A DNA stretch of 63,745 nucleotides, filler included, from Reclinomonas americana ATCC 50394 (taxonomy: Eukaryota): assembly GCA_048213135.1 (NCBI GenBank). It is 8 parts of 4 records of this genome, joined end to end, with 100 filler letters (N's around TTAATTAATTAA, not from the genome) between each part and the next. Parts side by side here need not be neighbours in the genome. Positions count along the whole stretch, not along the records: positions 1 to 14,895 come from PS015671.1; 7 more parts are not named here. One strand, given 5' to 3'. The notes beneath the pieces are model-generated. The model saw only the letters and a list, made by a program, of their open reading frames with translations, searched no databases and had not been told where the DNA came from. How positions within the stretch are numbered: position 1 is the first letter of the stretch; every line of letters begins with the position of its first letter. The position numbers and the translations under genes are program-made. This document shows positions 583 to 49,900 of the stretch, in pieces.

Positions 583-955
583 GCGCGACGTTGAGGACAG
601 AGTCAGAAGTTTCGGATTTGAGGGAAGAGTGAGACTTGCTGTGCTGCAAGTCGGTGTGGCACTACCAGTGCTGCCGTGTGTGTTTGCTTAGCACGTGCAG
701 GGATGCTCTACGTGTTTTGACGTTGCTGTCGGATTCCATCGCGCGAGGACAATCCGGCAAGCGACTGTTGTGGAGAGTGCGATTTTTGGAGAGACTCTGA
801 CGATTGAAGTCTGCTGTGGGCTGTGGAGTGGTGGGCCTTTACAGGTAAGCCTTGCAATCACCTGGAGGGAGAGAGAGCATGAGAAAGAAAGAGAGAGTTG
901 GTCTCGGGGGCAAGAGTGCGTGTTCATTGCGAATAGTCTCGCAGGAAGCAAGGGT

Positions 956-3900
956 ATGAGTGTTGAGACGAGGCAGCCTTCTGGCGACATCATCGCCAGT
1001 GTCGATGTGTTGACTCCACAGTTGCGAGAGGAGCGGGCTCGAGTGGAGCAACTGTCTCAGCTGGTGGCAGACTTGACTGCTGAGAAAGACGAGAATGTGC
1101 GCCAGGCGAAAGAGTTTTATCAACACGCTGAACGTATGCTTATGCTGCTCGAAGAGGCCGCCGCACGTGAATGTCAACTGAAGTCTTCTCAGACGCAACT
1201 CAACGCCGAACTGGACGACATCAATCAGCAACTTGTGGCCGAGCGACAGGCGCCGGCGCTACTGTCTGCTGAGCTTCAACGCGTCCAGGAACTATCGGCC
1301 ACGCAGGTGGACGAACTCAGTGCCGAAGTCGATCGCCTCAACGCCGCCATACAGGCGCAGCGAACTGCTACCGAGGACGAGGTGTTGCGGCTCAAGTCGG
1401 ACCTGGAGCAGCGGCAGCTGGAGTGGTCGGTGAAGGTGGCGAACGTCTCCGGCGAACTGCAGGCGGCGCTGGCAACTGCCGCCGAAGCAGAGGCTCAGCA
1501 TGCAGTGGAAATGGAGGCCGCCAAGCGTGAACTGGAGGCCATCAGGCATCTGGCTTCGGAGACTGTTTCGAAGCTGACCAACGAGCTGGAGGAGACGAAC
1601 CACTCTTTGCAGACTCTAACCAAACGATCGGCTGTCGAGCGGCAAGCAGCTTTCACGACGATTGCGGAACTCACCAACAAGCTGGAGGAGCAGCAACGTC
1701 TGTGGGCGTCCCAGAGCGAGGGTACAAACTCCGTGGTGGCACAGCTTGTCGACAAGACGGAGGAACTGAGCGTCCAGTTGAGACGAGCGACGGAGGAGCT
1801 GGGGCAAGTGACTTCTGAGCGGGATCAGCTGCGTGACGAGCTTGAGACAACCAAGTTGCAGTTGGGCGTGCAGACTGCACAGTTGGAGACGGCCGCCACT
1901 CGGGAGGTGCAGCTCATAGCCAGCGTTGACCGACTCAGTGGCGAACTCAGCGACAGTCACATGCACGAGAAGCAGCTCAACGCCGAAGTGTCGCGGCTTA
2001 CGGTGGACCTGGAGCAGTGCGACCTGGAGTGCTCGGTAAAGTTGGCGAGCATTGCAGGCGAGTTACGGGTGGCACGGGCGACTGTTGCCGAAGTGGAAGC
2101 TCAGCGTGCGGTGGATCTGGAGGCCGCCAAGCGCGAACTAGCCGCTCAGCATGAGGGCGCGCTGGCGGCCATGAGACTATCAGCGACCCAGCTTCGGGTC
2201 GAGCTGGAGGAGGCGAAGACATGTTACCAATCGCATGCCGAACGATGGGCTGAGGATCGCCGGTCGGCAGCCGCCAATATCTCGGAGCTCAACAACAAGC
2301 TGGAAAAGCAGCAACAGCTTATGTCATTCCAGAACGAGAGTGCAAGCTCCTTGGTGGCGCAGCTCACCGCCACCGTGGAGCAACTCACCGCCACCGTGGA
2401 GCAACTCAGTGGCAAGCTTAGCGCCAGTCAGCGCCGGGAGGAGGAGCTCACTGCCGACGTAGAGCGGCTCAATGGCGAATTCTGTGCCAGCCAGCTGCGC
2501 GAGGAGAAGCTCAACGGCGAGGTGGAGCGACTCTATGGGGAGCTCACCAAAAGTCAGCAGCGTGAGGCGCAGCTCAATGCCGAAGTGGAGCGACTCAATC
2601 ACGAACGCAGCGCCAGTCAGCAGCATGAGGCAGAGCTCACCACCGACGTGGAGCGACTCACTGCCAACTTGGAGGGACTCACTGGCGAGCTCAGCGCCAG
2701 CCAGCAGAGTGAGGTCGAGCTCACCGCCGTCGTGGAGGGCCTCAGTGGCGAACTCAGCGACAGTCAGGAGCGAGAGGAGCAGCTGGTCGCTGACCTGCGC
2801 GCGGCACGCGAGGCAGCAGCATCTACGGAGGCTCGCCTCAGCGCCGAACTGGAAGCCGTCAAGGAGAAGCTGGTCGCCGAGCACGCGACCGCAGTGCACC
2901 TGTGCAACGAACTGGCCACATGCCGGCAGCAGCTGACGGCTGTCCAGGTCGAGCTGACCAAACTGCAAGTCGACCTCGGCCAGCAGTTTTCAGCTTTGTG
3001 TAAGAGCCAGTACGAGCTGGAAGCGGAGAGGCGCGGACATCAACGCACGCTCAAGCTCATCGCCGAACTGCAGGAGCAAGTGGCCAGCGAGGAGCGTCAG
3101 TTGGAGGAAAGTGTAGCGGAGCTGGAGCGCGAGCGGGAGCAACACGCCAAGGTTCAAGCTGATGTCGAGCAGCTCACCACGCAGCTGGCTGCTGCACGGC
3201 GAGAACATGAGGTTTGACTGTGTGCGCGCGTCTCGAGTGCTCTCTTACTCCGTGACCCTTACTGTCGACTGGCACAGATCGTTACCGAAGAGTTGCAGCT
3301 GGTCAAAGAGGATCTGGTGACGAGCTCGATTCAACTCGACACTGTTGTGAATAGACTCAACGAAAGTAAGCACCGGGAGGAGCAGCTCGACGCAGATGTG
3401 GGGCGGCTTAGAAGCCAGCTGCACGCGCTGTTCGAGATGGACTTCCTCAGGTTCGTCCTTGACATGCACGTGCATCCGTTCTGCCTTGCCTTTCGTATTC
3501 CTCACTGTTGTTTGCTTGTGCAGCGATCGGCGTCGGATCCTGATGCTCACTGAGGTCGTGCACGAAATCATTCCACTCGCTCTCGGTTCGCTGCTCCAGC
3601 AGTTGGTTGCTGGATTCTTCCCTGGCGAGTTTGACATTGAGCAACTTTGTGCTGCGGATCCTCCCTTGAGGTGTGTAATATGGATTGTTCACTCTCTATC
3701 TTTCTTGCTCTGTGTACTAAACCTCGCACTACTTGCTAGATATCATCGATGGACTGTCGACATGTGTGGTTCCACTCGCTTGCGCTCAGTCAAAGTGTTT
3801 CCCGGCAATTACGCCGCGGTGCGTACGTTCAAGACAACTGGAGCGACGACGGATATGGACGTGACATTGCTGAGCAGTCTGCTGAAGTACACCAGCTTCG

Positions 3901-4992
3901 TTTCTGCCGCAAGTTGCTGCGACAGTGACTTGAGGCTTGTGCGCATCGATTCTGATACAAAAGAAGACCGATTGGCTGTACGACTTCTCGCTGACCCCGC
4001 CAAGGTATGCTTTTTTTCATACCGCGAATGTCTACTGCGAGTTCTCCTCACTGGGTGCCCTGTGTTGAAGATTCGAGCAGTGGAGAGCCTGCGTGATGTG
4101 CGCCATCGCGTGGCACATCTGGCTCGCCTTTCCACCCTCGACGATGCCGAGTACGTGAGCGTCCTGCGATTGGTTCGCGACTCGCTCCACACGCTGTTCC
4201 CTGACGGAAAACACGAGAGCGTCAGTCAGTTGTTCCAAGCGTACGACAGTTGCGTTGCTGGCTCTCCTGGTGTATTTCGCCTGGCTCTGGCGTCTTACCT
4301 GTCACACAGGGGTGAGCCGTATCACTGTGACGGCTGAGTTGGTGACTGAGAGGACCGCGAGACTTGCTGTCCATGCTCCAGCTGTGCCGTTCACCGACTT
4401 GACAATATCGAAGGAACTTGCAGTGGGTGAGAGAGCTTCTCTCTTCAAGGCAGACAAATACGTGCTCATGATGCCCAATTCCGTCCATAGGTCAGAACTC
4501 TGTCTCTCGTGCCAGTCTGCGTTTCGACGGTGAATTGCGCAGTGTTGCATACAAGCGGTATAACACCAGGAATGCGGGCGCTGCTCACCAAGTTCGTGCA
4601 AACTTCGAGGACGAACAGTCGCTGCTGTTGCTGCTCGAGTTGAGTGTGTGTGTGTTCCAGTCGAAGATCTTTGCTTTCTCAGTCACTGACATGCATCTAT
4701 TCAGTCACCCGCACATTGTGAAACTGCTGGCCGTGTGCGACGGCGATCCAAGCGGCGTCGGTCTCATTCTTGAATACGTCGGACAAGAGGAGGAGACTGG
4801 AAGTGCCGAAACTTTGCACGACCTTGTTGCAGCTGGACACGTCACGACACTACATCTGCTCCTGCTGCTCGTGCAAGTGGCTTTAGCGGTGGTGTACGTG
4901 CACTCGCGTCGAGTGGTGCATCGTGATCTGAAGCCTCAGAGTTGCGACTTTCAGAGAGGCCAGGGAGTGTGAAGCACATAAGTGTATGTGTG

Positions 4993-5030
<38 letters not shown>

Positions 5031-5763
5031 TATGCGCACGTCGCATCTGGTAACTGCATCGTTCATAATGAGCTGTTGTTTCTCGTGACTGAATTCGTGA
5101 CTTCTCTCGATAGACATTCTCGTCAGCGAGGACCGTCTCACTGTCAAGGTCTGCGACTTTGGAGAGGCTAGAATTCACGGAACGCTTGGCAAAATGCAGT
5201 CCACCCACGGCACCGCAGCGTATGCTGCACCCGAAGCCATGTTGGAACAAGAGGTGCACAGCTGACAGTTGTTCTTCTCAGTCTGACACAGGATTCACTG
5301 ACGGTTCTGTCACTGTCCGCAGTACGACGAGCGTGCAGATGTGTACGGACTTGGTTCTCTGCTCTGGTTCATCGCCACTCGCCGAGAACCGTTCAGAGGA
5401 CTGAAACTGCCGGCTATCATGCGTCGCATGCATGACGGCATCCCACCAGGCAACCTTGACGACGAGACTATTCGGTCAACTGTATCGGAGGAGATTCGCA
5501 ATCTAATTCGACAGTGCTGGGTTGCGTGCTGGTGATGTGCGACAGGCGGCGTGTGATTTAGGTGTTTATTAACCGTGTGTGTAATGATAACGATGCAGCG
5601 GCCTCAAGCATCACGAGTGTCTGCATCGTATGTGCACGACGAGCTGAAGCACTTGTGTGACAAGATGGCTGCGGCCGACGCGGCTGTGCCAGGAAGTGTT
5701 TCTGGCACGGCTGCGCCTGGCTCTCCAGAGGCAGGAGTTGCGGCGGCGAGCGGATCGATGTAG
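956..5763 (+). CDS. Multi-exon gene: long coiled coil + DZIP3-like HEPN domain + TKL-like protein kinase (paralogue 1)
   Basis: Exon 956-3211 is an E/L/Q/A-rich coiled coil. Spliced GT-AG exons give MDFLSDRRRILML..., DMDVTLLSSLLKY, SLRDVRHRVAH (4101-4118 = RHRVAH), then kinase motifs VAYK, LDHPHIV, HRDLKPQNIL, DFG, GTAAYAAPE, DVYGLG and CW. Stop TAG 5761-5763. Start codon uncertain. Confidence 0.8.
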
Positions 5764-6789
5764 CCAGCAATCCGAGACTGCAATGGAGTTGTGCAGTTTT
5801 TGAAACCAATGAATAATCAATCAACACCACCGTTGCCCCGCTTCCTCTTCTTGACCCCATGCACGCACCAGGAAGAAGAAATCACCACCGAGTTCTAATG
5901 CAACGTCGTGCAGATGTCCTGCGTGTTGAATCGTTCTGTCGCGCATTCTCTCCGCCCTCTTCCCTGTTGTGCACACCCCACCCCCATCATGAGCACCTCC
6001 GACTCAGAAACCACCCCGTACGTTCCCCCCTCTCTCTCTACCCNNNNNNNNNNNNNNNNNNNNAGAGAGAGAGAGAGAGATAGAAGGAGAAGGGGACGTG
6101 AAGCGAGAGAGCAGCAGAGAAAGTGGCCTGTCGATCCTCGACCTTCGTTCGTTTCACGCGTGCACTCTTCTCTGATCCGCATGCCTTTTCCTTTCTTCTC
6201 TCACGACAGAGGGAAATGGAATGTGTTAAATGATGTCAAGTGAGACTGCTTGCGTGTTGGCTGAGGGAAACAAAGGGTGAGAAAGCGACAGAGTGGAAAT
6301 GACCAGCTGAAAAATGAGAGGGTATGTGATTGCTGGATTGAGTGCGGAAAGGAGGAAGACTTGAAGGGCGCTCGTCTGTTCGCCTCACCTCCTCAGTCAT
6401 CCCCCCCACCCTTTCTCACTCCCCTATCCCCCTTCCCCCCTCTCTTCCCCTTGTCTCATCAACTCTCCTGCTACCTGTCCACTCTCGCGTTCGCTCCTCT
6501 CCTTCGCTCTCTCTCCTCACATTTATCCTCCCGTCTTCCTCCGTGTCACTCTCCCGTTCACTTCCCGCTCGTCTGTTCGCCTCATCTCCTCAGTCATCCA
6601 TGCCCACCCACCCTTTCTCTCTCCCCTATNNNNNNNNNNNNNNNNNNNNCAGTGTCATTCTTTCGTTCACTTCCCGCTCGTCTGTTCGCCTCACCTCTCA
6701 GACATCCCCCCACCCTTCCCCCTTCTCTTCCCCTTTCCCTCACCACTCCCCTTTCCCTCTCCCTTCACCCCTGTCGCAGTGCCTGGGAG

Positions 6790-9700
6790 ATGGCCAGCGA
6801 CGGCGAGTTGCACACCCTGCGCCAACTTGTTTCGTGCGAGGGCGCACACACTCTGCTTTCGCGGGAGGAGATGGATCCGAATGGCGGATCGGCATTCTAC
6901 TGTGCGGCATGGCACGGCCACATTGACGTGGTACAGTATCTGTGCGACGAAAGCGGCGTGGGTCCGCAGCTCGCAGTCACCAATCAACTCTTTACGCCTC
7001 TCATCGGCGCCGTCAACAACCGCCAAGTGCGCATGGTGGAGTGGCTGCTGGCGGAGGAGCGGCGATGTCCGTTGGCGATGGTGCGCATGGTGACCAGGGA
7101 GCGGTGGAGTGCGTTGCATTTTGCGGTGGTGGAGGGCGATGAGGGGATGGTGCGGTGCATTGCCGAGCGGTGCCCGGACGTGATTGGGTTGGTGAACGAG
7201 GCGGGCAAGACGGCGGCGCAGGTGGCGCGCGAGGTGGGCGAGGAGCGTGTGGCCGACTTGCTCGACCGCTTGACTGCGCGTGGTGAGGGTATAATGCCTT
7301 TTTGTGATGTTTTTTCTCTTGGCTGACACTCTCCCTTGTCGAAGGAGGTGCCGCGCCTCGCGAGTCGGTCGAGGAGATTGTGGCGGAACGGGATCAACTT
7401 CGTCTAGAGCTGGCTGATGCAAGACACAAAATAGGCGAACTGGCACGCCAGCTGCGAGCTATCGTCGGAATGGATTTTCTTAGGTTTACCATTTCAAGTC
7501 GTTCTCTATCTTTCTCTCTCTTGATTCACTCTCTGTTGGGTGTGCAGTGACCGTCGTCAGATCCTAATGCTCATCGAAGTAGTGCACGAGATCATTCCAC
7601 TCGCTCTCGGTTCGCTGCTCCGCCAGCTGGTCGCTGGATTCTTCCCTGGCGAGTTCGACATCGAGCATCTATGCGCTGAGGATCCCCCTTTGAGGTGTCA
7701 ATAACGGATTGCTCACTCTCTGTCTCTCTTGCTCTCTGTGCTAAACCTCGCACTACTTGCTAGATATCATCGATGGACTTTCGACGTGAGCGGTTCCTTT
7801 CGGCTGCGCTCGGCCAACATATTTTCCGGCAATTACGATGCAGTGCGTACGTTCAAGGCGACTGGTGCGACGACGGATATGGACGTGACATTGCTGAGCA
7901 CTCTGCTGAAGTACACAAGCTTCGTTCCTGCCGCAAGTTGCTGCGACAGTGACCTGAGGCTTGTGCGCATCGATCATTCCACAAAAGAAGACCGACTCGC
8001 TGTGAGACTGCTTGCTGACCCAGCCAAGGTATGCGCATGCTTGCTCCTGGTCCGCCACATATTTTTTCTTAATTGGGTGCGCTACTCTGTAGATCGAAGC
8101 TGTGCAGAGCCTGCGTGATGTGCGACATCGCGTAGCACATCTTGCTCGCCTTTCCACGCTCGATGATACAGAGTATGTTCGCATCATGCGACTTGTGCGT
8201 GACTCGCTCTACACGCTGTTCCCCGACGGAAACCATGATAGTATTCGCCACCTGTTCGAAGCGTATGACAGTTACATCGCGCGTTTCTCAGCAAACTTAT
8301 GGTTCTTTAGCCTCACAAGCTACTCAGACGTGTGTCGCATTGACTCTGCGGCTGAGGTGGTTCAGGATGAGGCAGCCAAGCTCGTCATCCGCGCGCGAAC
8401 CATTCCATTCTCAGACTTGGCCATATCGAAGGAACTTGCAGTTGGTGAGCGCTTTATTTTTGAACGCTCGTGTATCCGTGTGCGAGCACAAGGTCACCAT
8501 GCCTGTTCTCTACGCAGGTCAGAACTCTGTCTCTCGAGCCAGTCTCCATTTCAACGGTGAATTGCACACTGTTGCATACAAGCGGTATACCATCAGGAAC
8601 CCAGGTGCTGCAAAGCGTGTGCGTGCAAGCTTCGAGGACGAACACTCACTGCTGATGCTTCTCGAGTTGAGTTTGTGTTACAGTCGATGCTCATCTCCTT
8701 TGCAGTCACTGATATATATCCATTCAGCCACCCGCACATTGTGAAACTGCTGGCCGTGTGCGACGACGATCCAAGCGGCGTCGGTCTTGTTCTTGAATAT
8801 GTCGGACAAGAAGCAGAGGCTGGAATTGCCGAAACTCTACACGACCTTGTTGAAGCTGGCAACGTGACGAGTCTATATCTGCTCGGGCTGCTCGTGCAAG
8901 TGACTTCAGCAGTGGTCTACATGCACTCACGTCGAGTTGTACATCGTGATATCAAGCCCCAGAGTTGCGGCGATGAGAAGAAAGGAGTTGGTGTGAGATT
9001 AGCAGGTGGCAGCAACATGGTATTGTACAGTAATTGTGAGTGCAGTGTGTGTATATAGAGAGCGAGTGGGTGAGAGAAAAGAGTAAGAGAGGTGCATTTG
9101 AATGCACTTCCGTTGGCACATTCGTTGACTAAGTTGCATACGTGCAGACATCCTCATCAGTGGCGATCGACTGATGGCAAAAGTGTGCGACTTTGGGGAG
9201 GCGAGAATACATGGAACTCTTGGCAAAATGCAGTCAAAGCGTGGGACTCCAGCGTACGCTGCACCGGAAGTCATGTTGGGCCCGACGGTGGACGTGTACT
9301 TGCCTCTCATCTCTCTCCCACTCTCTCACTCTGTCTTTTGGATTGTCAGTCACTCATACCTCTTGCTCAAATTGCAGTACGATGAGCGGGCTGATGTGTA
9401 CAGCATTGGGTCTGTGTTGTGGCTCATTGTCACACGGCAAGAGCCATACTGTGGAGAAACGGTGATGGACTTGAAAGACTTCATGAAGGACGGTCGCTTG
9501 CCGGGAAACCTTGACGATGAAGACGTGCAGAAATCTGTGCCAGAAGGCATTCGCAATCTGATTCGCAAGTGCTGGGTTGCGTGTCAGTGTATTGTCATTC
9601 TCGCTTGTGGTTCGCTCATTGTATACGTTATGCAGCGGCCTCAAGCAACACGCGTGTCATCATCTTACTTGCACGATGAGCTGAAAAGTCTGTACGACGA

Positions 9701-9908
9701 ATTGGTAGAGAAGGCGGCGACAAGTGGAGGTGGCAGTGCATCTGGTGCGGTCGGTTCGGTATCGTTGGGAGCTGCGGCCAGTGCGGCTGTGGCAAGTGGA
9801 GTAGCCAGCGCGGCTGCAGCAGGAGGTGTAGCCGGTGCAGCAGCGGCTAGTGGAGTGACCGCTGCGGCTTCGGGTGGAGATACAGCAAATGGCACTGCGT
9901 CGAAGTGA
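6790..9908 (+). CDS. Multi-exon gene: ankyrin repeats + short coil + DZIP3-like HEPN domain + TKL-like protein kinase (paralogue 2)
   Basis: Ankyrin motifs SAFYCAAWHGHIDVVQYL, TPLIGAVNNRQVRMVEWLL, SALHFAVVEGDEGMVRCI and GKTAAQVA. Spliced downstream exons give DMDVTLLSTLLKY, SLRDVRHRVAH (8123-8140), VAYK, HRDIKPQNIL, DFG and GTPAYAAPE. Intron positions match paralogue 1. Confidence 0.85.
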
Positions 9909-10774: not shown

Positions 10775-11561
10775 ATGCGCGCTCACCACCCTATCCTCCT
10801 CGTCGTCGTCGCAGCCGCCGCTGTGCTGCTCATCTCCACGCTCGCCCTGGTGCAAGCGGATCCCGAGCAACTCGTCGCGAACCGCGTTGCGTCGATCATC
10901 ATGATGTGATCGATGTGTTCGCGCCCACTCTTCTCATCTCTCCTTCCAGGTCGACCAATTCTACCAGGCACTCGCCGAGGCGCAGTCGTCATCCGCCACA
11001 ACGATCACATACGAGCGGCCGGGGATCACACAGTTCACCTCCACAGGCGTGGCGGGACGGAACGCCATCTCCTGGATTCATCTCCTGCAGGGTCGTCGTG
11101 CCGACCGAGTATGTGGTGATCAGCGGCGGTGTCACCATCACCGGCGGCAATCCCGGCCCGTTCGCCTTGGCGGGCACCAGCTGCGCTGATCCCAACGGCT
11201 TCGCGCTGACCTCGACTTTCCCGTTCTATAACTCCACGTCACAGCAGTACTCTGGTTTGGGGAGGCCAAGGTGTGAGGATTGGGAGGGGGGGGGGAGGAG
11301 ATCGAGAAAGGAGGGAGGGGAGTGGGAGGGGGAGGGAGGGAGAGGGAAGGAGAGGAGAGGAGCGGGAGGGGAGGGAGGAGAGGAAAGGGACGAGAGGAGA
11401 GAGACCAATCAGTTTTGTGTGATGGTTTTAAGATCACACCGGTTTCTCACTCCTGTTAAAGGGACCGTTACGACTATAAAATTCGCATTGGTTGGGAGCC
11501 TTGGCGGGAATTTCTTTCCTCAGTGATGTGTGAGAGAAGACAACTCCAACACTGAGCGGAG
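10775..11561 (+). pseudogene. Secreted protein family copy A, frameshifted; 3' part not visible
   Basis: Signal peptide MRAHHPILLVVVAAAAVLLISTLALVQA is nearly identical to copy C (19146). Exon 2 VDQFYQALAEAQ... shifts frame at a 13-nt insertion (11066-11078). There is an apparent in-frame TGA at 11524. Confidence 0.6.
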
Positions 11562-11633
11562 GTTAGTGCGCGCGTGCGTGTGTCGTGTGTACGTTGAACA
11601 CACACACACACCCCGGCAATGATGCCTTGGTCG

Positions 11634-13535
11634 CCTGCCTTCTCCTCCCTTCTTCTGCCTTCCCCTCCCTTCTCTAATCTTCTCCTGTCTCCTCCTCCCT
11701 CCTCCTCCCTCCTCCTGCCTTCTCCTGCCTCCTCCTCCCTTCACATCCCTTCTCCTGCCATCTCCTCCGTTCTCCTGCCTTCTTCTGCCTTCTCCTCCCT
11801 CCTCCTGCCTTCTCCTGCCTTCTCCTGTCTCCTCCTGCCTTCTCCTCCCNNNNNNNNNNNNNNNNNNNNNNNNNNNNNNNNNNNNNNNNNNNNNNNNNNN
11901 NNNNNNNNNNNNNNNNNNNNNNNNNNNNNNNNNNNNNNNNNNNNNNNNNNNNNNNNNNNNNNNNNNNNNNNNNNNNNNNNNNNNNNNNNNNNNNNNNNNN
12001 NNNNNNNNNNNNNNNNNNNNNNNNNNNNNNNNNNNNNNNNNNNNNNNNNNNNNNNNNNNNNNNNNNNNNNNNNNNNNNNNNNNNNNNNNNNNNNNNNNNN
12101 NNNNNNNNNNNNNNNNNNNNNNNNNNNNNNNNNNNNNNNNNNNNNNNNNNNNNNNNNNNNNNNNNNNNNNNNNNNNNNNNNNNNNNNNNNNNNNNNNNNN
12201 NNNNNNNNNNNNNNNNNNNNNNNNNNNNNNNNNNNNNNNNNNNNNNNNNNNNNNNNNNNNNNNNNNNNNNNNNNNNNNNNNNNNNNNNNNNNNNNNNNNN
12301 NNNNNNNNNNNNNNNNNNNNNNNNNNNNNNNNNNNNNNNNNNNNNNNNNNNNNNNNNNNNNNNNNNNNNNNNNNNNNNNNNNNNNNNNNNNNNNNNNNNN
12401 NNNNNNNNNNNNNNNNNNNNNNNNNNNNNNNNNNNNNNNNNNNNNNNNNNNNNNNNNNNNNNNNNNNNNCCTCCTCCTGCCTTCTCCTGCCTTCTCCTGT
12501 CTCCTCCTGCCTTCTCCTCCCTCCTCCTCTCTTCTCCTGCCTTCTCCTCCCTTCTCCTGCCTTCCCTCCCTTCTCTTCTCTTCCCCTGCCTCCTCCTGCT
12601 TTCTCCTGCCTTCCCTCCCTTCTCTTCTCTTCTCCTGCCTTCCCCTCCCTGCTCCTGCCATCTCCTCCGTTCTCCTGCCTTCTTCTGCCTTCTTCTGCCT
12701 TCTCCTGCCTTCTCCTCTCTTCTCCCTTCTCTTCTCTTCTCCTGCCTTCTCCACCCTTCTCCTCCCTTCCCCTGCCTTCTCCTGCCTTCTTCTGCCTTCT
12801 TCTGCCTTCTCCTGCCTCCTCCTGCCTCCTCCTGCCTTCTCCTCCCTTCTCCTCCCTTCTCCTGCCTTCCCCTCCCTTCTCCTGCCTCCTCCTCCCTTCT
12901 CTTCTCTTCTCCTGCCTCCTCCTCCCTCCTCCTCCCTTCCTATCCCTTCACCTCCCTCCTCCTCCCTCCTCCTGCCTTCTCCTCCCTTCATATCCCTTCT
13001 CCTCTCTTCTCCCTTCTCTTCTCTTCTCCTGCCTTCTCCTGCCTCCTCCTCCCTTCTCCTCCCTTCCCCTGCCTTCTCCTGCCTCCTCCTCCCTTCTCCT
13101 CCCTTCTCCCGCTTTCTCCTCTCTTCTTCTCCCTCCCCCTCCCTCCTCCTCCCTTCACATCCCTTCTCCTGCCTTCTCCTGCCTTCTCCTGCCTTCTCAT
13201 CCCTTTTTCTGCCTTCTCCTGCCTCCTCCTCCCTCCTCCTCCCTTCACATCCCTTCTCCTGCCTTCCCCTCCCTTCTCCTCCCTCCTTCTGCCTTCTCCT
13301 CTCTTCTCCTGCCTTCTCCTCTCTTCTCCTGCCTTCTCCTGCCTTCTCCTGCCTTCTCCTGCCTTCTCATCCCTTCTCCCGCCTTCTCCTCCCTTCTCTT
13401 CTCCCCCTCTTCTCATTAGTCCTCCTCCCTCTCCTCCCCTCTCCTCCCTTCTCCTGCCTCCTCCCTTCTCCTGCCTCCTCCTCTCTTCTCCTGCCTTCTC
13501 CTCTCTTCTCCTCCCTTCTCCTGCCTTCTCCCTTC
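11634..13535. repeat. Degenerate pyrimidine-rich 10-mer satellite (CTTCTCCTGC-like), with an internal N gap
   Basis: Directly visible tandem repeat. Confidence 0.9.
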
Positions 13536-14939
13536 CCTGACAAACAAACACACACACACACACACACACACNNNNNNNNNNNNNNNNNNNNNNNNNNNNN
13601 NNNNNNNNNNNNNNNNNNNNNNNNNNNNNNNNNNNNNNNNNNNNNNNNNNNNNNNNNNNNNNNNNNNNNNNNNNNNNNNNNNNNNNNNNNNNNNNNNNNN
13701 NNNNNNNNNNNNNNNNNNNNNNNNNNNNNNNNNNNNNNNNNNNNNNNNNNNNNNNNNNNNNNNNNNNNNNNNNNNNNNNNNNNNNNNNNNNNNNNNNNNN
13801 NNNNNNNNNNNNNNNNNNNNNNNNNNNNNNNNNNNNNNNNNNNNNNNNNNNNNNNGGTCGGTATCCAGAAGCATCGGATTGCTTCACACCAGCGACGATG
13901 AGGCACGCAGTCTATAGAACGCTTCAGTCCGGCGTGGGAGAGCGTGAGGCTATTGCAGCGTGCAAGGTCGTGGTAACCGGCGCCGATGAGTAGGCGGCCC
14001 GTACACTGGATACAGAGATGGTCTGCAGCGCGCGATCGGTCACCGTCGTCAGCGCAACCTTGATGGGTGAGAGTAAAGAGAAACTGCCGCTCTTCACTCA
14101 TCGATGCATTGAAGAGGAAGAGCGAGAGGGCAAGAGCTCACGGAGACAGCCCTTGAGCAGCATCCAAGACTGCTGCCACCAGTACCTGCACGCGCACCTG
14201 CCAATCAGGTGGTCAGAGCCATAGACACGACAACCTGACCACAATGTCATGACGACTCGAAACGCAACCAGTGCAATCAACCGCAGCAGTTGCTCCGTGA
14301 ATAACGCGGCATGTGAGCGACATCATCGGTGGTGGTAGCCGCTGTGGCTCTTGCGCTTGCACGCGCAGCCTTGTCGGCGCCCTTGGCCCGGTCGGCTGCG
14401 CGTACTATCAATCGAGCAGCCTTCACCCGCGTTCGAGGCGTCATGTCATCCTCATCCTCATACTCATCGGAGCTGTCCACATCGCCAGCGACTAGCACTT
14501 CTCGATCGTAATCGTTCTCGCTGTCCTCGAGCTCGAGATCCTTGACCTCGTCGTCTCCATCATCGGCACTGCTAGATAACCACCGCCGCATGCAGCAGAT
14601 GGTTGTCGGATGCAATCGCTGGCTGCCGAGCTGCGGGCATGATTGGCGGCTGCGGTGGTGAACGACACCTGGTACGAGGTGGAGTTGTCGCGCTCGCGAA
14701 CGTATCACACGCCCAGTTGCCACTGTGGGGGGAGAGCAGCTGTCGGCCCAGTGGCTGTGGCAGAGGCATGCCACGTTCTGCGGTGACACCAGAAGAGACC
14801 ACTGGAGACGTGCGCCGACTGCGCTTCACCGGTGGAGACAGAGCTGCGGTGGCGATAACTGGCCATGGAGATGACGGCACTGCTTGCCGACGTCGNNNNN
14901 NNNNNNNNNNNNNNNNNNNNNNNNNNNNNNNNNNNNNNN

Positions 14940-21228: not shown

Positions 21229-22554
21229 AACTGCGATCTTCACCGCATACTCCTCGTCTACGACTTCAGAGAAACCCGAGTTCGAGTAACTCCACTGGAG
21301 TCTCGACACTCTATAGACTCTTGTGTCCTCTCCTTAGTCGGCCGTCAGCTGTCGCCACCACTCTGGCTACCGCATTCTCGACCCATTGGTCGGCTCACTG
21401 ACTACTGCTCCACTGACTACCTCAAAACGATGCACCCCATCATGACTAAAGGTTTGACTTCATTTTACATGCCTCTGCTTGACAGGCTCCCGCAACGGGG
21501 CCGGTCATGCTCGTGACCAGCCCATCTCCATCTTCATGGCGTGTGTGCGACCCTTGCTGGTCACGGATCCCTTTCACCGTAACCGTGCGGACAGCTTCGA
21601 AGCACCGATGCCAGCGCCAGCACCTGCGCTTCCACGGCCGTCGAGCGTATGATCACCACAGTAGAGTACCGACCAGGTGGCTTGCTCTCCGAGGAGAGGA
21701 AGCCAACAGAAGCGAACCGAAAGGAGAGGACACAATCGTCAGGGTGTCCTCGACTGAGTGTTCGCAACTCTCCTCTCCCCTAAGTATGCAGGTAACAAGA
21801 GGACTAGATTGCTTGGTTGTCGGTGAGGGAATTGTTTGGCGGATCCCGTGTGCAGCGCGCATTCACCTGCAGTGCGGCAAATGCGATTTCGATTTCGATT
21901 TCGATATCAATCTCAACTTTTTTCACTACTTCAGTTTCTTGTGCTCACTTAAGATGGCAATCTTCATGCAGCTTGAGCCGCAGCCACCGCAATTTCAATA
22001 TCGAGAATGTCTCAGGCATACTTGTACCGCCGGCCACGATCCGGATCCATGGCATGTTCATCTAGATGCGGTGACCGCGGCAATCAGCTGCAGCGCCCTG
22101 CTGACCTTGGTGCACAAAAGTGTTCGAATTCAGAATCCCGATGAACCAACAGTCACCATATAACTCTTTTCTCGCCCGCCTCGCGCGCACCTCCCTTCCC
22201 CCCCTTTCCTCCCTTCCTCTCTCCCACCATGTCCGCCTCCCCTTTCGACGGCCCATCATCGCCAACGCCCGAGAGTCCTCGCAGTCCACCGCCCTCGTCC
22301 GCTCTCCGTCACACACCCTCCAAGGGCACTCCTCGCGTTGTGCGCAAGCCAGTCATTGTTGAAGAAGAACGTTCTGTGCATGCTGCTGCTGCTTCTGTGC
22401 TTGCTGCTGCTATTTCGGTCAACTCACTGCTGCACTCGATGTCTCAGCGTATGACTTTCCCGCCGAGAAGATGTTGCCCGAGTCGGACACGTTGCGCGAG
22501 AGGAGGAGTGGTGGAAGAGTGGTGGTGGAGGAGAAGAGTGAGAGGGTGAGAGGG

Positions 22555-22930
22555 CAAGTGGTGATCTTGATGAGTGTGTAAGTAATGCAGATGACAACTG
22601 AGAGATGAGAGAGAAAGAGAGTGAGTGAGTGAGAGAGAGGGAGAGAGAGTGAGTGAGTGTGTGTGTATGTGGAGAAGGAGAAGGGGGAGAGTGGAGGGGA
22701 GTGAGAGGGGAAGTGATGATCAAGTGATGATCTTGATGATTGTGTTTTGTGATGCAGATGACAACTGAGAGATGAGAGAGAAAGAGAGTGAGTGAGTGAG
22801 TGAGTGAGTGAGTGAGAGAGAGAGAGTGGAGAAGGAGAAGGGGGAGAGTGGAGGGGAAGGAGAGGGAAAGTGATGATCAAGTGATGATCAAGTGATGATC
22901 TTTGCTGATTGTGTAAGTGATGCAGATGAC

Positions 22931-22974
<44 letters not shown>

Positions 22975-22995
22975 AGAAAGAGAGAGAATGAGTGA

Positions 22996-23034
<39 letters not shown>

Positions 23035-23120
23035 TGGAGAAGGAGAAGGGGGAGAGTGGAGGGTAGTGATGATCAAGTGATGATCTTGATGATGTTGTCA
23101 GTGATGCAGATGACAACTGA
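22555..23120. repeat. Four-copy composite minisatellite (TGATGATCAAG...GATGCAGATGACAACTGA plus GA/GT microsatellite)
   Basis: The unit core recurs at about 22557, 22712, 22868 and 23065. Confidence 0.85.
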
Positions 23121-23256
23121 GTGAGTGAGTGAGTGAGTGAGTGAGAGTGTGTGTGTGAGAGAGAGAAGAACTTGCGTGTTGAGCGGAGAGAGAGGACAGA
23201 AGAGGAGATAATCAGCTCTGCTAATCGTTCGTTGTGTGGGTGTGTTAAGCATCACT

Positions 23257-30304: not shown

Positions 30305-32400
<2,096 letters not shown>

Positions 32401-43900: not shown

Positions 43901-46900
43901 TCACTCACGCCTGGCAGCAGCAGGAAATCAACGCAACGAATGTACATCAGAGTGGATCCGACCTTGAAATACGACCCCGAGGCAGAGAAGCGTACACACA
44001 CGCTGTATACGCCACCCACAGTCACTCCTGTACCACCGACATCCTGCGCGAGTGTAGTGCCACCGCCTCCACTGGCGCCCGTAAGCGTCACAGAGCCGGC
44101 CATTGTGCCGGCCGCCGTACAGGTGGCACTCGGTTCCAGNNNNNNNNNNNNNNNNNNNNNNNNNNNNNNNNNNNNNNNNNNNNTTAATTAATTAANNNNN
44201 NNNNNNNNNNNNNNNNNNNNNNNNNNNNNNNNNNNNNNNATGCGGGGACGTGGGTGAAGGTTTCATCTTCGTTGCTGACTGGCGGTGAGTGTGTACCATG
44301 AAGGACGATTTGTGGCTGTCATAGAATATCTCAATTCTCTTTTCCCCCAGTGGCCAATGCGACGTCGTTCACACCGTCGTCGATTGCGGCGGAGACTGCG
44401 GGCGCCAGCATAACGATATCAGGTCTGGCACTGCGAGCGACCGACGTGGTGCGCTTGGAGGCAGGTGTGACGTGTACGGCAAGCGGAGGCGGGAGTTTGC
44501 TGACAACCGGCACACTTGGCGGGATGGTTGGTGCGTGGACGCTGACGGCGAGCGCATCGTCGGCGAGCACAGTTCCAACTGGATCGTTGTCTGTGTGGTG
44601 AGTGAGTGGAGCGCAGATGGAAAGGATGTTGCGGCTCACCACGCTTACTGTGATCTTCTGTCGCACACAGCATCCAGTACGGTGGCGGGGGGTCATTTGT
44701 GAAAGTCGGCAGCACTGAGGTCGACGCAGGTTCGTCCTGTCATTAGATTTTCCCTTGACCAGCAGCACGCTGACTCTCATTCCTCTCTGCCCAGTGGCTA
44801 CAACCACTGGATTTTCACCGTCGTCCATTTCGGTGTCGAGTACGTACGATAATGTCATTGTTGCCGGAGCTGGGCTGCAAAGCACCGACATTGTCGAGTT
44901 GCAACTCGGTGTAACTTCGTGCGCTACTGCTGGTGGCGGCATTGGTCTCGCCTTCCAGAGTCTGGGCGGCTTTGCTGGCTCGCGTTCTCTAGTGTTCAAG
45001 GCTGCATCATCGTCGACCCTAACCGTGCTCGGCATGTATGCTGTGTGCATCAAGTTTACTGGAGCCTCTACGTTCACCACTGTCGGCTCGACGCAAATTA
45101 CCGTTGGCCCTTACCCTTTCGTCACCTTGGACGCCACCGGCATCACTGCGGTGTCGGCGCAGCTGCAAGGCTCCGTCGACCCGCGAGGAGGCTTTCTGTT
45201 CAACGGCTTTGAGCTTGCCGTGGCGTCGTCGGCGTTTGGTGCGACGGTCACGTCCAGCTCGCTGGCTGGGACCATGAACTCGGCATGGGTGCGGTGATCA
45301 GAGTCATTTATCATCCACTCCTGAAGCTTTTTTGCTGATCTCGTTTGTGTGGTGTAGGGTGTTGCCCCGCTGGCAAACGGCGATGTGTTGGTGGCCGACT
45401 CGCTGTGAGTGAACTCGGAATGTGCAGGGTGTGGAAGCTTGCGAGCTCATATGTATTTTTCATACAGCAATCACGTTTTGCGACTGATCTCAGGATCAAC
45501 TGTCACTGTGGTCGCTGGATCTGTGGGAATGGCAGGCAATGTTGATGACGTGGGCACAGCGGCGCGACTGAATGAGTACGTTCGAGTGATTTGCGCTTGC
45601 GTGTCTGTGCGAAGACTGACTTTTTGCCTGCAGACCGGCCGACATTGAGGCGGATCCGCTGACCGGCGCCGTGTTTGTTGCTGCGGTGTGTGGCGGAGGC
45701 ATCGTGATGCACACAAAGAGTGCTCGTGAAGCTCACCTGTTTTTCAACAGAACTTGAACCACACACTGCGAAAGTTCGACACCGGAAACATGCTATCGAC
45801 GGTGGCCGGAGCTGGTACATCGGCCGGCTGCNNNNNNNNNNNNNNNNNNNNNNNNNNNNNNNNNNNNNNNNNNNNTTAATTAATTAANNNNNNNNNNNNN
45901 NNNNNNNNNNNNNNNNNNNNNNNNNNNNNNNAAGCTGTATGTGGTGGAGCAGGCCGGCCAAGTGATTCGAAGAATCAGTCTCAGCACACTCACGGTGACG
46001 ACCGTCGCTGGTCAAGCGGGTACGACGGGAACAACTGATGGCGGGGCACTCAGCGCGCGATTCAACGGACCAGTGAGCATTGCACTCGATGTGGTGTGCA
46101 ATGTGGCGTATGTGACCGATGTTGCGTCGGCGTTGTCTGTGTGGTCGTGATGGATCGTCTCGTGCCTGCGCCATCGATGTTCACTGTGTATGCCACAGAC
46201 GGGAAACAACACTGTGCGGCAGTTGACGAACGACGGACGAGTGGTGACTATCGCGGGCGTGGCAGGTATGTCGACGGTGACAGATGGCACGCAGCCAGGC
46301 ATCTCGTTCGCTACGCCGGTTTGTGTGTTTGTGTTGTTGAAGGTGGTGTTCCTCTCTGTCGCTAATGTGAGGCGGCACGCAGCGGGGTGTTGCGTACGAC
46401 CCGTGGCGTGGGGTACTGGTTGTCGGAGGTAAGGATGAAGGGGACTGCGTGATGTGACTTGTGTTAAACTCATTTCTCACGTGTTTTCCTTCTTCTTCCC
46501 GTGTCCTCAGATCAAACCAAGGTGCGATCGCTGACACTGCCGGCGTGTTTGGTGACGGCGTCGCCAAGCACGTCGACGGGCTCGGGTTTCACAGGGACAT
46601 CGGCTGCAGTGTCGCAGTTGCTGCCTCAGACTACATATTATTTCCGGTCTGTTGACGCATCGAGTTTTCAACCTGGCAATCAAAAATCATTCACCACACT
46701 TGTTGGTATGTGTGATCGGATGAGTCACCGAATGATGGCAGCTCATTCTTGTTGATGACTTTATTGTGATCCTTTACAGCTCCGACGTTGGAGACGCAAG
46801 CGGCATCTGGCATCACGGCGGTGGCGGGTGTGCTGAATGGCTCCGTCAACGCCAACAACGGGCCGAGTGTCAGTGTGCAGTTTGACATGTCGACGGACCC

Positions 46901-49900
46901 GCTGGTTGAGACGAATGTGACTTCGCTTGGGGCTGACACTCCATCGTCTGCTGTGATGGGTTCTTCGACTGTGACGGCGAGGAAAGCAGTTAGCGGGCTG
47001 GCACCAAACACCACGTATTACTATCGTCTTGTGGGTGACGTTGGCAGTGGAGTTCAGTTGAGGGGAAGCATTCAACCACTACTCACATCACGAGTTGCAA
47101 CCGCGACAAGTAATGCAGCGGTGGTGACGAGTGCAGTGTCAGCGACGCTGAGTGGCACCGTGAATGCTCAGAATGGATCCGCGGCCTCGGTGGCGATTGA
47201 GTACTCGACATCGATGACGTTTAGCAGCGGCGTGGTGAGTGCGCCTGGCGTGATGCCTGTCACCGTCAGCGCGTCAACGGATACTCCAGTGACTGTGAAT
47301 GTGAGTGGGCTGACGCCGAACATCACGTACTACTTCCGTGTTGTGGCAGCAACAGGCAACGGTGCACCCGTGCAGTACAGTTCAGTGCAGTCATTCACGA
47401 CTCCGCAATTGCAGACGTCAGTCAGCAATGCGGCTGTGGTAACGAGTGCAGTGTCGGCGACGTTGAGTGGCACAGTGAATGCGCAGAACGGTCCGGTGGT
47501 GACAGTGTCGATTGAATACTCGACTTCAATGACTTTCAGCAGCGGCGTGGTCAGCGCACCTGGCGTGATGCCAGCGACAGTCAGTGCGTCGACAGATACG
47601 GCTGTCACTGTCGATGTTACATCGTTGACGGCGAATACCGCGTACTATTTCCGTGTTGTGGCGACGACAGGCGGTGGTGCCTCTGTTGAATTCAGCAGCG
47701 TACAGCCGTTCACAACTTTGCAGCTGGCAACAGCAATCAGCAATGCAGCTGTGGTGACGAGTGCAGTATCGGCGACGTTGAGTGGCACGGTGAATGCGCA
47801 GAACGGGCCAGCGGTGACGGTATCGATCGAGTATTCGACTTCAATGACGTTTAGTAGCGGCGTCGTGAGTGCGCCTGGCGTGATGCCTGCCACAGTTAGT
47901 GCGTCGACCGATACGCCGGTGACTGTCGACGTTGCGCCATTGACGCCGAACACGGCGTACTATTTCCGTATTGTTGCGACGACGAGCGGTGGTGCTCCCG
48001 TGCAATACAGTTCTGTGCAATCATTCACGACGTTCAAACTGGCGACGGCAGTCAGCAATGCAGCTGTGGTGACGAGTGCAGTATCGGCGACGTTGAGTGG
48101 CACGGCCAATGCACAGAACGGTCCGTTGGTGACGGTATCGATCGAGTACTCGACGTCAATGACTTTCAGCAGCGGTGTGGTTAGTGCGGCTGGCGTGATG
48201 CCTGCCACAGTCAGCACATCGACGGATACGCCAGTGTCAGTGGGAGTTAGCGGGTTGACGCCGAACACAGCGTACTATTTCCGTGTTGTGGCGACGACGA
48301 GCGGTGGTGCTCCTGTTCAGTACAGCGCCGTGCAACCGTTCACCACGCCACTGTTGCCAACTACGGCGAGCAATGCAGCTGTGGTAACGAGTGCAGTATC
48401 GGCGACGTTGAGTGGCACGGTGAATGCGCAGAACGGTCCGGCGGCGACGGTATCGATTGAGTACTCGACGTCAATGACTTTCAGCAGCGGCGTGGTGAGT
48501 GCGCCTGGCGTGATGCCTGCCACAGTTAGTGCGTCCACCGACACGCCAGTGACTGTCGACGTTGCGTCATTGACGCCGAACATCACGTACTATTTCCGTG
48601 TGGTGGCGACGACAAGTGGCGGTGCTCCCGTGCAGTACAGTTCTGTGCAGCCGTTCACGACGTTCAAGCTGGCGACGGCAGTCAGCAATGCAGCTGTGGT
48701 GACTAGTGCAGTGTCGGCGACGCTGAGTGGTACGGCCAATGCACAGAACGGTCCGACGGTGACGGTATCGATCGAGTACTCGACGTCGATGACATTCAGC
48801 AGCGGTGTGGTGAGTGCGCCTGGCGTGATGCCTGCCACTGTCAGTGCGTCGACCGACACGTCAGTGACTGTGAGTGCGAGTGGGCTGACGCCGAACACAG
48901 CGTACTATTTCCGTGTGGTGGCGACGACGAGCGGTGGTGCTCCTGTGCAATACAGTTCTGTGCAGCCGTTCACGACGTTCAAGCTGGCGACGGCAGTCAG
49001 CAATGCAGCTGTGGTGACTAGTGCAGTGTCGGCGACGTTGAGTGGCACGGTGAATGCGCAGAACGGACCAGCGGTGACGGTATCGATCGAGTACTCGACG
49101 TCAATGACTTTCAGCAGCGGTGTGGTGAGTGCGCCTGGCGTGATGCCAGCAACTGTTAGTGCGTCCACCGACACGCCAGTGACTGTCGACGTTGCGTCAT
49201 TGACGCCGAACACCACGTACTATTTCCGTGTGGTGGCGACAACAAGTGGCGGTGCTCCTGTGCAATACAGCTCCGTGCAACCGTTCACCACGCCACTGTT
49301 GCCAACTACGGCGAGCAATACAGCTGTGGTGACTAGTGCAGTGTCGGCAACGTTCAGTGGCACAGTGAATGCGCAGAACGGTCCGACGGTGACGGTATCG
49401 ATCGAGTACTCGACATCGATGACATTCAGCAGCGGTGTGGTGAGTGCGCCTGGCGTGATGCCAGCAACTGTGAGTGCGTCCACCGACACGCCAGTGACTG
49501 TCGACGTTGCATCATTGACGCCGAACATCACGTACTATTTCCGTGTTGTGGCGACAACAAGTGGCGGTGCTCCTGTGCAATACAGTTCTGTGCAACCGTT
49601 CACCACGCCACTGTTGCCAACTACGGCGAGCAATACAGCTGTGGTGACTAGTGCAGTGTCGGCAACGTTCAGTGGCACAGTGAATGCGCAGAACGGTCCG
49701 ACGGTGACGGTATCGATCGAGTACTCGATATCGATGACATTCAGCAGCGGCGTTGTGAGTGCGCCTGGCGTGATGCCTGCGACAGTCAATGCGTCGACCG
49801 ATACGCCGGTGACTGTCGACGTTGCGTCATTGACGCCGAACACTGCGTACTATTTCCGTGTGGTGGCGACAACAGGTGGTGGTGCTCCCGTGCAGTACAG

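Follow-up and report, generated by a model that had tools for sequence, protein, structure and literature searches.

Kinase-coupled HEPN ribonucleases (RNases), i.e., Ire1 and RNase L, are the textbook cases of signal-controlled RNA cleavage in eukaryotes. Ire1 consists of a lumenal sensor, a transmembrane segment, a kinase and a KEN domain, RNase L consists of ankyrin repeats, a pseudokinase and a KEN domain, and to our knowledge the RNase of all described systems of this kind is a KEN domain that follows the kinase. The DNA considered here is a stretch of 63,745 nucleotides (the window; 8 parts of 4 records of assembly GCA_048213135.1, filler included) from Reclinomonas americana ATCC 50394, in which two tandem genes, gene 1 and gene 2, each encode a predicted Ser/Thr kinase preceded by a helical domain. 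On balance, and with moderate confidence, these genes are best explained as tandem kinases with a divergent HEPN-type module, its R-x4-H motif kept, just N-terminal of the kinase. In our reading, the domain architecture is new and its parts are of known kinds, and an RNase L-like mechanism is suggested by analogy.

Gene 2 carries the same three kinds of module as RNase L, i.e., ankyrin repeats, a protein-kinase fold and a candidate HEPN-type R-x4-H domain, and the KEN family appears in published listings as a HEPN in fusion with Ser/Thr/Tyr kinase and ankyrin (PMC3710099, Table 1). The modules are, however, arranged as ankyrin-coiled coil-HEPN-like-kinase as opposed to ankyrin-pseudokinase-KEN, the kinase has all catalytic residues as opposed to the pseudokinase of RNase L, and nothing was noted that suggests 2-5A sensing. 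Likewise, a kinase and a candidate HEPN-type RNase in one chain, together with an N-terminal oligomerising part, are features in common with Ire1, but the HEPN-like domain precedes the kinase and differs in type from the circularly permuted KEN domain, and no transmembrane segment was evident. No KEN domain was found after the kinase, where only Ala/Gly/Ser-rich tails in the 50–90 amino acid range (54 and 90) were present; the last exon of gene 2 matched no RNase family in Pfam, and the 54-amino acid last exon of gene 1, which was not scanned, is too short for a KEN domain. Nor was kinship with either enzyme apparent from the kinase. Thus, a search of PDB sequences with the exon that spans the N-lobe to the catalytic loop gave 97 matches at E ≤ 0.001, with AMPK as the best (E 2.2e-7), and the best 60 of these 97, among them AMPK, SIK3, MARK, CDK6, SNF1, CaMKIV, CDPK, TAK1 and FAK, included no Ire1 or RNase L kinase. 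An earlier note on this DNA had set both genes beside RNase L and Ire1; given the lack of a KEN domain and of any special likeness of the kinase among the best 60 matches, that comparison did not hold for these features. The same note knew of no described protein with this domain order, in agreement with which full-text literature searches turned up no account of a eukaryotic protein kinase that carries a HEPN domain on its N-terminal side, the supplementary architecture lists of PMC3710099 lying outside the coverage.

Exons were found from stop-to-stop open reading frames (ORFs) and the DNA itself, and gene models were assembled by script from window coordinates. The resulting models, both on the + strand and both without an internal stop, comprised 11 exons each and specified 1349 amino acids for gene 1 (positions 956–5763) and 786 amino acids for gene 2 (positions 6790–9908). 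All 20 introns, which ranged from 35 to 184 nt, were of the GT-AG type, and intron positions and phases matched between the two genes, those of the donor and acceptor of intron 1 included. Introns 3, 4 and 7 of gene 1 are stop-free and have lengths that are multiples of 3; in gene 2, intron 3 contains TAA, and introns 4 (64 nt) and 7 (35 nt) shift the frame. Since these gene 2 introns break the frame, only the spliced reading leaves both genes open, which provides independent support for the models. The prediction of the earlier note that both genes splice into a variable N-terminus, a helical domain and a kinase was borne out by these models; the motifs DVTLLSxLLKY, LRDVRHRVAH, VAYK, HRD, DFG and APE were all recovered from the spliced products, and the coordinates proposed for the middle domain (3524–4248 and 7548–8271) agreed to within one base with those obtained here (3524–4248 and 7548–8270). 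The predicted order of modules is therefore coiled coil or ankyrin, short coiled-coil stalk, 197-amino acid helical domain, variable linker and Ser/Thr kinase.

Homology between the genes at the DNA level began at positions 3517 and 7541 and extended to the 3' ends, with 78% identity over 1,449 bp and 65% thereafter, and 9 of 10 introns were more divergent between copies than the exons beside them. Over the 486 shared codons, amino acid identity was 76%, the ratio of nonsynonymous to synonymous substitution (dN/dS) was 0.25 and dS was approximately 0.6. The helical domain was the most constrained part (84% identity, dN/dS 0.18; 90, 84 and 78% identity for its three exons in tblastn comparisons of gene 2 with gene 1), followed by the kinase (73% identity, dN/dS 0.27), with dS of approximately 0.5–0.6 across domains. 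Thus, purifying selection acts on both the HEPN-like domain and the kinase, and these low ratios indicate that both copies are functional genes and that the middle domain matters to both. By these sequence comparisons, the two genes arose by tandem duplication in a short-intron eukaryote and are both functional, and each is predicted to code for a multidomain Ser/Thr kinase. No more than these two copies of the gene were present within the 63.7-kb window, and the G+C fraction across the two-gene region was approximately 0.52–0.59.

The N-termini of the two proteins are of different kinds. Exon 1 of gene 1 (956–3211, +; ORF 692–3217, first Met at 956, donor GT at 3212) specifies 752 amino acids of coiled-coil-like repeats, for which the Pfam matches to Filament (E 3.9e-4) and Rootletin (E 3.4e-3) were weak and under the respective cut-offs, and exon 2 (3278–3450, +) adds a coiled-coil stalk of 57 amino acids. 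Exon 2 matched the exon 1 repeats at 5 places in blastp comparisons (E 5e-5 to 4e-4) and is, as judged from these matches, one more unit of the repeat in exon 1. Exon 1 of gene 2 (6790–7282, +; ATG at 6790, donor at 7283) instead contains ankyrin repeats, as indicated by matches well above the Pfam cut-offs to Ank_2 (E 7.1e-14, 52.6 bits, cut-off 27.3) and Ank (41.8 bits, cut-off 21.1) as well as by matches to Ank_3, Ank_4 and Ank_5. An ankyrin start for gene 2 and some 800 amino acids of coiled coil for gene 1 had been anticipated in the earlier note, which further described these N-termini as swapped. They do differ, but the second exon of gene 2 (7345–7483, +) specifies a 45-amino acid coiled-coil stalk that aligns with exon 2 of gene 1 in 13 invariant columns, the terminal MDFL included, and in both genes this exon sits directly upstream of the helical domain, with homology between the genes starting already in exon 2. 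Since the stalk is common to both genes, the N-termini differ but were not simply swapped.

The part downstream of the helical domain, i.e., linker, Ser/Thr kinase and Ala/Gly/Ser-rich tail, occupies positions 4310–5763 (+) of gene 1 (exons 4310–4426, 4491–4643, 4683–4940, 5114–5253, 5323–5520 and 5599–5763; stop TAG at 5761–5763) and positions 8328–9908 (+) of gene 2 (exons 8328–8444, 8518–8670, 8706–8963, 9148–9287, 9378–9575 and 9636–9908; stop TGA at 9906–9908). The linker between helical domain and kinase is 26 amino acids long and variable (35% identity). Pfam Pkinase (PF00069) matches scored 42.6 bits for gene 1 and 42.6 and 47.4 bits for gene 2 as compared with a cut-off of 31.7. The VAYK lysine, the alpha-C glutamate, HRDLKPQN, DFG and APE were complete in both spliced models, and in both genes the asparagine of HRDLKPQN, in the catalytic loop, was formed across intron 8 by splicing. 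The Gly-rich loop is degenerate (A-V-G-Q-N-S, i.e., A-x-G-x-x-S), which weighs against certainty of full activity. The kinase is probably an active and otherwise unremarkable Ser/Thr kinase, to judge from these residues.

The helical domain, 197 amino acids in each protein, occupies positions 3524–4248 (+) of gene 1 (exons 3524–3670, 3740–4004 and 4071–4248, introns 3671–3739 and 4005–4070) and positions 7548–8270 (+) of gene 2 (exons 7548–7694, 7764–8028 and 8093–8270). DVTLLSSLLKY was read from the sequence at 3858–3890 (+) and DVTLLSTLLKY at 7882–7914 (+), and LRDVRHRVAH lies at 4089–4118 (+; RHRVAH 4101–4118) and 8111–8140 (+; RHRVAH 8123–8140). RHRVAH, which is identical in both copies, has the R-x4-H form, its R being followed by a polar residue, as in the HEPN motif R-x4-6-H, where the residue after R is mostly N, D or H (PMC3710099). 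That this domain is a divergent HEPN-type module appears rather likely. The strongest rival, namely that it is a lineage-specific regulatory or dimerisation domain with no HEPN ancestry and that its likeness to HEPN over some 29 residues reflects chance or convergence on an R/H/D-rich amphipathic helix, appears unlikely, although the bare motif itself is common by chance, R[NDH]xxxH having been found 39 times in 56 kaa (thousand amino acids) of decoy ORFs, as this rival would have it.

Chance is harder to reconcile with the family that was matched and with the residues beside the motif. Among 24,736 Pfam families, the motif exon of both copies matched HEPN_Swt1 (PF18731) and no other at E ≤ 10 (E 0.075 and 0.024 for the two copies; E 0.16 when a longer ORF that includes the gene 2 exon was used), and the match, with RHRVAH at its core, covered profile positions 78–107 of 115, which is the place of the family's own motif. 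Bacterial PF18731 members were collected from 46 of 401 genomes of one phylum, from 12 of 401 of another and from 18 further regions, and the window segment PAKI.AV.SLRDVRHRVAHLARLS.LDD (also written PAKI.AV.SLRDVRHRVAHLARLS..DD) aligned with ...ERSLVSELR.VRNRWAHQ..FS.DD of 41 bacterial Swt1-type members. A hidden Markov model built from these 41 HEPN domains scored the two loci at 9.2–11.2 bits (11.2 for the gene 2 locus) as opposed to at most 3.2 bits for 471 decoy ORFs from the window, despite the 39 chance motifs in the latter. In hhalign comparisons with the same 41 domains, a score of 28.1 was obtained over 29 columns (P 4.5e-4, probability 33%), and none of 110 shuffles with RHRVAH fixed reached this score (mean 14.3, standard deviation 2.3, maximum 21.7). 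These motif-fixed shuffles, together with the decoys, control for the region having been chosen for its motif. When different portions of the same two proteins were compared by hhalign, the 4 that contained the segment scored 25.4–28.2 and the 15 that did not scored 9.5–20.6.

Results for the whole domain pointed in the same direction. The only named families shown among its neighbours in the ESM Atlas were DUF4559 (11%), HEPN_DZIP3 (11–38%) and HEPN_Swt1 (20%); neighbour scores were 0.88–0.93, and the two best neighbours shared 187–188 of 256 features. DUF4559 we take to be the CXorf38 family, presumably listed as HEPN in a 2013 paper. The neighbours point to three different HEPN families, which counts against a domain of no HEPN ancestry. 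In a low-confidence 169-amino acid model (local predicted local distance difference test, or pLDDT, of 62–67), a helix ends 3 residues past the H of the motif and is followed by a 5-residue loop and a second helix; the HEPN motif is placed at the end of helix 3, just ahead of the loop to helix 4 (PMC3710099).

Other results weigh against HEPN ancestry and thereby favor the rival. Every HEPN signal in the sequence was below accepted thresholds and limited to one helix. Thus, the HEPN_Swt1 matches of 12.7–15.4 bits (best for gene 2, E 0.024 and 15.4 bits) did not reach the family cut-off of 27.5, hhalign probability was 8–33% depending on the template set (P 0.004 with another set), and addition of 12 Pseudomonadota members to the Swt1 template gave no gain in score (probability 18%, P 0.0013). 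The likeness was confined to approximately 29 residues, with the first 134 residues of the domain at the level of shuffles (16 of 40 reached the observed score) as well as the last 33 (6 of 40), and when only the flanks were shuffled around an unchanged core, the observed score was reached by 84 of 100 shuffles and the summed posterior by 7 of 100. The D of DVTLL aligned with the conserved D of bacterial WD..LL..MW only at low stringency, a match that is not significant alone. At E ≤ 10, no match to Pfam HEPN_DZIP3 (PF18738) was obtained with any exon or read-through, nor any match in PADLOC and NCBIfam, and sequence and profile searches of the PDB with the domain gave no HEPN. The Atlas 'recognition' value of 1853 was under the level reached by 91 of 100 known families, only 3 of the ten best named Atlas hits fell in one clan, and the middle exon of the gene 2 domain (exon B) alone had no HEPN neighbour. 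AlphaFold2 models of intron-retaining read-throughs were all-helical but unusable (pLDDT 39.3 for 241 amino acids and 44.3 for 169 amino acids), giving no support for the fold.

Homologues that might show whether the R and H matter were likewise not found. A phmmer search of 1.84 billion representatives with the 241-amino acid read-through gave 0 matches at E ≤ 0.001. Word-dependent searches, which are weak evidence, gave none for the domain at longer lengths (E ≤ 0.01) or near lengths (E ≤ 10), and none for a kinase exon at longer lengths (E ≤ 1e-5). Alignments of exon B and exon C gave 58 and 598 pattern matches, respectively, in metagenome contigs and 135 pattern matches were noted in viral contigs, with 0 confirmed in either case. 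Since no homologue was found in the collections searched, conservation of R and H is that between two paralogues and says little. The proposal of the earlier note that the domain is a HEPN can be retained for the R-x4-H motif and for some 29 residues of Swt1-like sequence beyond it (P 4.5e-4, 0 of 110 shuffles) but not for the flanks.

Candidates of other kinds that appeared in these searches were rejected as noise, i.e., PDB matches at E 0.1–0.7 to a citrate transporter, LptE ('rare lipoprotein B') and the FAT domain of protein-tyrosine kinase 2-beta, and, as Atlas neighbours of exon B, bacterial beta-barrel and DUF clusters that shared 110–142 features, which is chance level.

Taking the domain as a divergent HEPN-type module, we place it nearest to the Swt1-like or DZIP3-like kind, with Swt1-type HEPNs as its nearest measurable relatives. 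The DZIP3 family has an F-D-x-T-L-L..LLRN helix and an R-N-x3-H motif, which would be similar to DVTLL..LLKY and RHRVAH, and the earlier note took an upstream D-[IV]-T-L-L helix as a mark of this family. Since PF18738 was not matched at E ≤ 10, however, the domain cannot be placed in the DZIP3 family, and the DZIP3-type assignment of the earlier note was not upheld. Swt1-family HEPN is the only Pfam family that the motif exon matched, but at 15.4 bits or less as opposed to 27.5 and with no detectable similarity in the rest of the domain; moreover, the bacterial-type active versions of this family described from Naegleria, dictyostelids and Daphnia stand alone as proteins, and the eukaryotic bacterial-type versions are listed as solos (PMC3710099), whereas the domain considered here is fused to a kinase. 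With the DZIP3/hRUL138-type HEPN of animal NLR-like and death-domain proteins, the two proteins share the position of a HEPN effector N-terminal to a signalling module, as in the HEPN-NACHT proteins of cnidarians (PMC8260672) and the oyster TRADD-N proteins that carry an N-terminal HEPN RNase (PMC8195603), and 11–38% of the members of Atlas neighbour clusters carry PF18738. This type differs in the missing Pfam match and in that it is described mainly from animals, with no kinase fusion listed in the part of PMC3710099 covered. Las1-Grc3 also unites a HEPN nuclease and a kinase in one machine (PMC10942766), but as two proteins, with a P-loop RNA 5'-kinase and a role in rRNA processing, as opposed to a eukaryotic protein-kinase fold in the same chain.

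Two bacterial loci, L117 and L120, were noted as divergent members of the Swt1 HEPN family. Their sequence ...VRIATMHARVVTLDD... is closer than the family consensus to ...VRHRVAHLARLSTLDD... of the window, both in the motif and in the T-L-D-D that follows it, and they may indicate which subgroup lies closest to the eukaryotic domain.

In HEPN RNases the active site spans a dimer, and kinases trans-phosphorylate in dimers. A coiled coil, long in gene 1 and short in both genes, would hold two chains parallel and would thereby bring two HEPN-like domains together as well as pair the kinase domains for trans-phosphorylation. The differing N-termini (some 800 amino acids of coiled coil as opposed to ankyrin) would direct a common HEPN-kinase cassette to different partners or locations, and the module may cut RNA or may regulate the kinase simply by binding RNA or a nucleotide. 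By analogy with Ire1 and RNase L, the RNase and the kinase could conceivably regulate each other, and the antiviral or stress signalling with activation by dimerisation that the earlier note proposed could be the setting. That the domain is an active RNase can be put forward only tentatively, with the chances somewhat against it. Rather improbable is the fullest version of this scheme, i.e., an independently evolved dual enzyme of the Ire1/RNase L type in which a coiled-coil-dimerised N-terminal HEPN RNase and an active kinase would regulate each other behind exchangeable sensor or targeting N-termini, and which would serve as a protist stress or antiviral RNA-decay switch built from a bacterial-type (Swt1-like) HEPN as opposed to KEN.

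A second rival accepts HEPN ancestry but holds that the domain is no longer a nuclease, that its role is to bind RNA or a nucleotide, or simply to dimerise, and that the kinase is the only effector, which it would switch. Inactive HEPN domains do serve as binding modules, and eukaryotic Swt1, the HEPN of which may be inactive, was proposed to use it in a comparable binding or sensing role (PMC3710099). The kinase, with all its catalytic residues, can be the output. In addition, a clear E-x3-[KR] acidic partner motif, the typical form of a second acidic residue in helix 2 of 'many' HEPN families (PMC3710099), was not evident in the candidate helix, an observation that also counts against HEPN membership as such. 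On the other hand, R, the polar residue that follows it and H, which when retained are the mark of active HEPN RNases (PMC3710099), were kept in both copies at a dS of approximately 0.5, and we regard a non-nuclease of this kind as improbable. A gene-model artefact, with N-terminal exons on separate transcripts or pseudogene copies and hence no single sensor-HEPN-kinase chain, is a very improbable third explanation, for although the assembly is a draft (31 N runs, 4,868 N in total, in the window), internal Met codons lie close to the end of exon 2 and the predicted joining of the N-terminal exons to the rest was deduced from DNA by splice-site and phase logic alone, which counts against a single chain, the models are open over 1349 and 786 amino acids with matching intron 1 phases, dN/dS is 0.18–0.27, exon 2 of gene 1 carries on the exon 1 repeat and homology between the genes starts as early as exon 2.

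If tandem kinases with a HEPN-type module are indeed present, they would represent a second, independent kinase-HEPN chain in the opposite order, such that the coupling would have evolved more than once, and would provide a natural test of whether dimerisation geometry, as opposed to a particular domain order, is what matters. Protein kinases would then join the modules that recruit N-terminal HEPN effectors, i.e., NACHT, death-fold and TRADD-N in animals. If the domain is not a HEPN, the locus would be an ordinary lineage-specific kinase duplication.

Several features of the introns were also noted. Intron 3 (3671–3739 in gene 1 and 7695–7763 in gene 2) is 69 nt long in both genes and 86% identical, a degree of conservation like that of the flanking exons, as compared with 56–78% for the other nine introns, and exon 4 next to it had the lowest dS (0.15–0.29). 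This pattern is suggestive of local gene conversion or of constraint on the intron. If retained, intron 3 of gene 1 would add an in-frame, stop-free and hydrophobic insert of 23 amino acids, whereas that of gene 2 contains TAA. Intron 7 (4644–4682 and 8671–8705), inside the kinase N-lobe, is extremely short (39 and 35 nt) and, since it shifts the frame in gene 2, must be spliced. The donors of introns 5, 8 and 10 include several of the unusual form GTTGCG.

Elsewhere in the window, (GA)n/(CT)n and related microsatellites were abundant (1–700, 11500–13900, 22400–23250, 61500–62200 and other places) and gave rise to long spurious frames on both strands (SLSLSL, ERERER and 'EGRRRQEK' repeats); because of these and the 31 N gaps, ORF lists for the window are unreliable outside conserved genes. 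The other genes recognised in the window are of kinds usual for eukaryotes. A gamma-tubulin complex component gene (58589–63745, +), which continues past the end of the window, was identified by matches to GCP_N_terminal (E 1.3e-35, 60149–60733) and GCP_C_terminal (61171–61500 and 63332–63745) and is broken by long (GA)n or Ser-Leu low-complexity stretches and N gaps. An exon with the C-terminal motifs of a DEAD-box helicase (Helicase_C, E 3.3e-12) was noted at approximately 32100–32250 (+). A single open frame of 1704 amino acids at 46770–51881 (+) consists of tandem Fn3-like repeats (fn3 E 8e-56; Fn3 matches of the PhoD_N and Pur_ac_phosph_N type down to E 5e-81). Related open frames were present at 44.7–45.3 kb and 53.3–54.0 kb, and the 1704-amino acid frame probably belongs to a giant protein that is extracellular or exposed on the surface.

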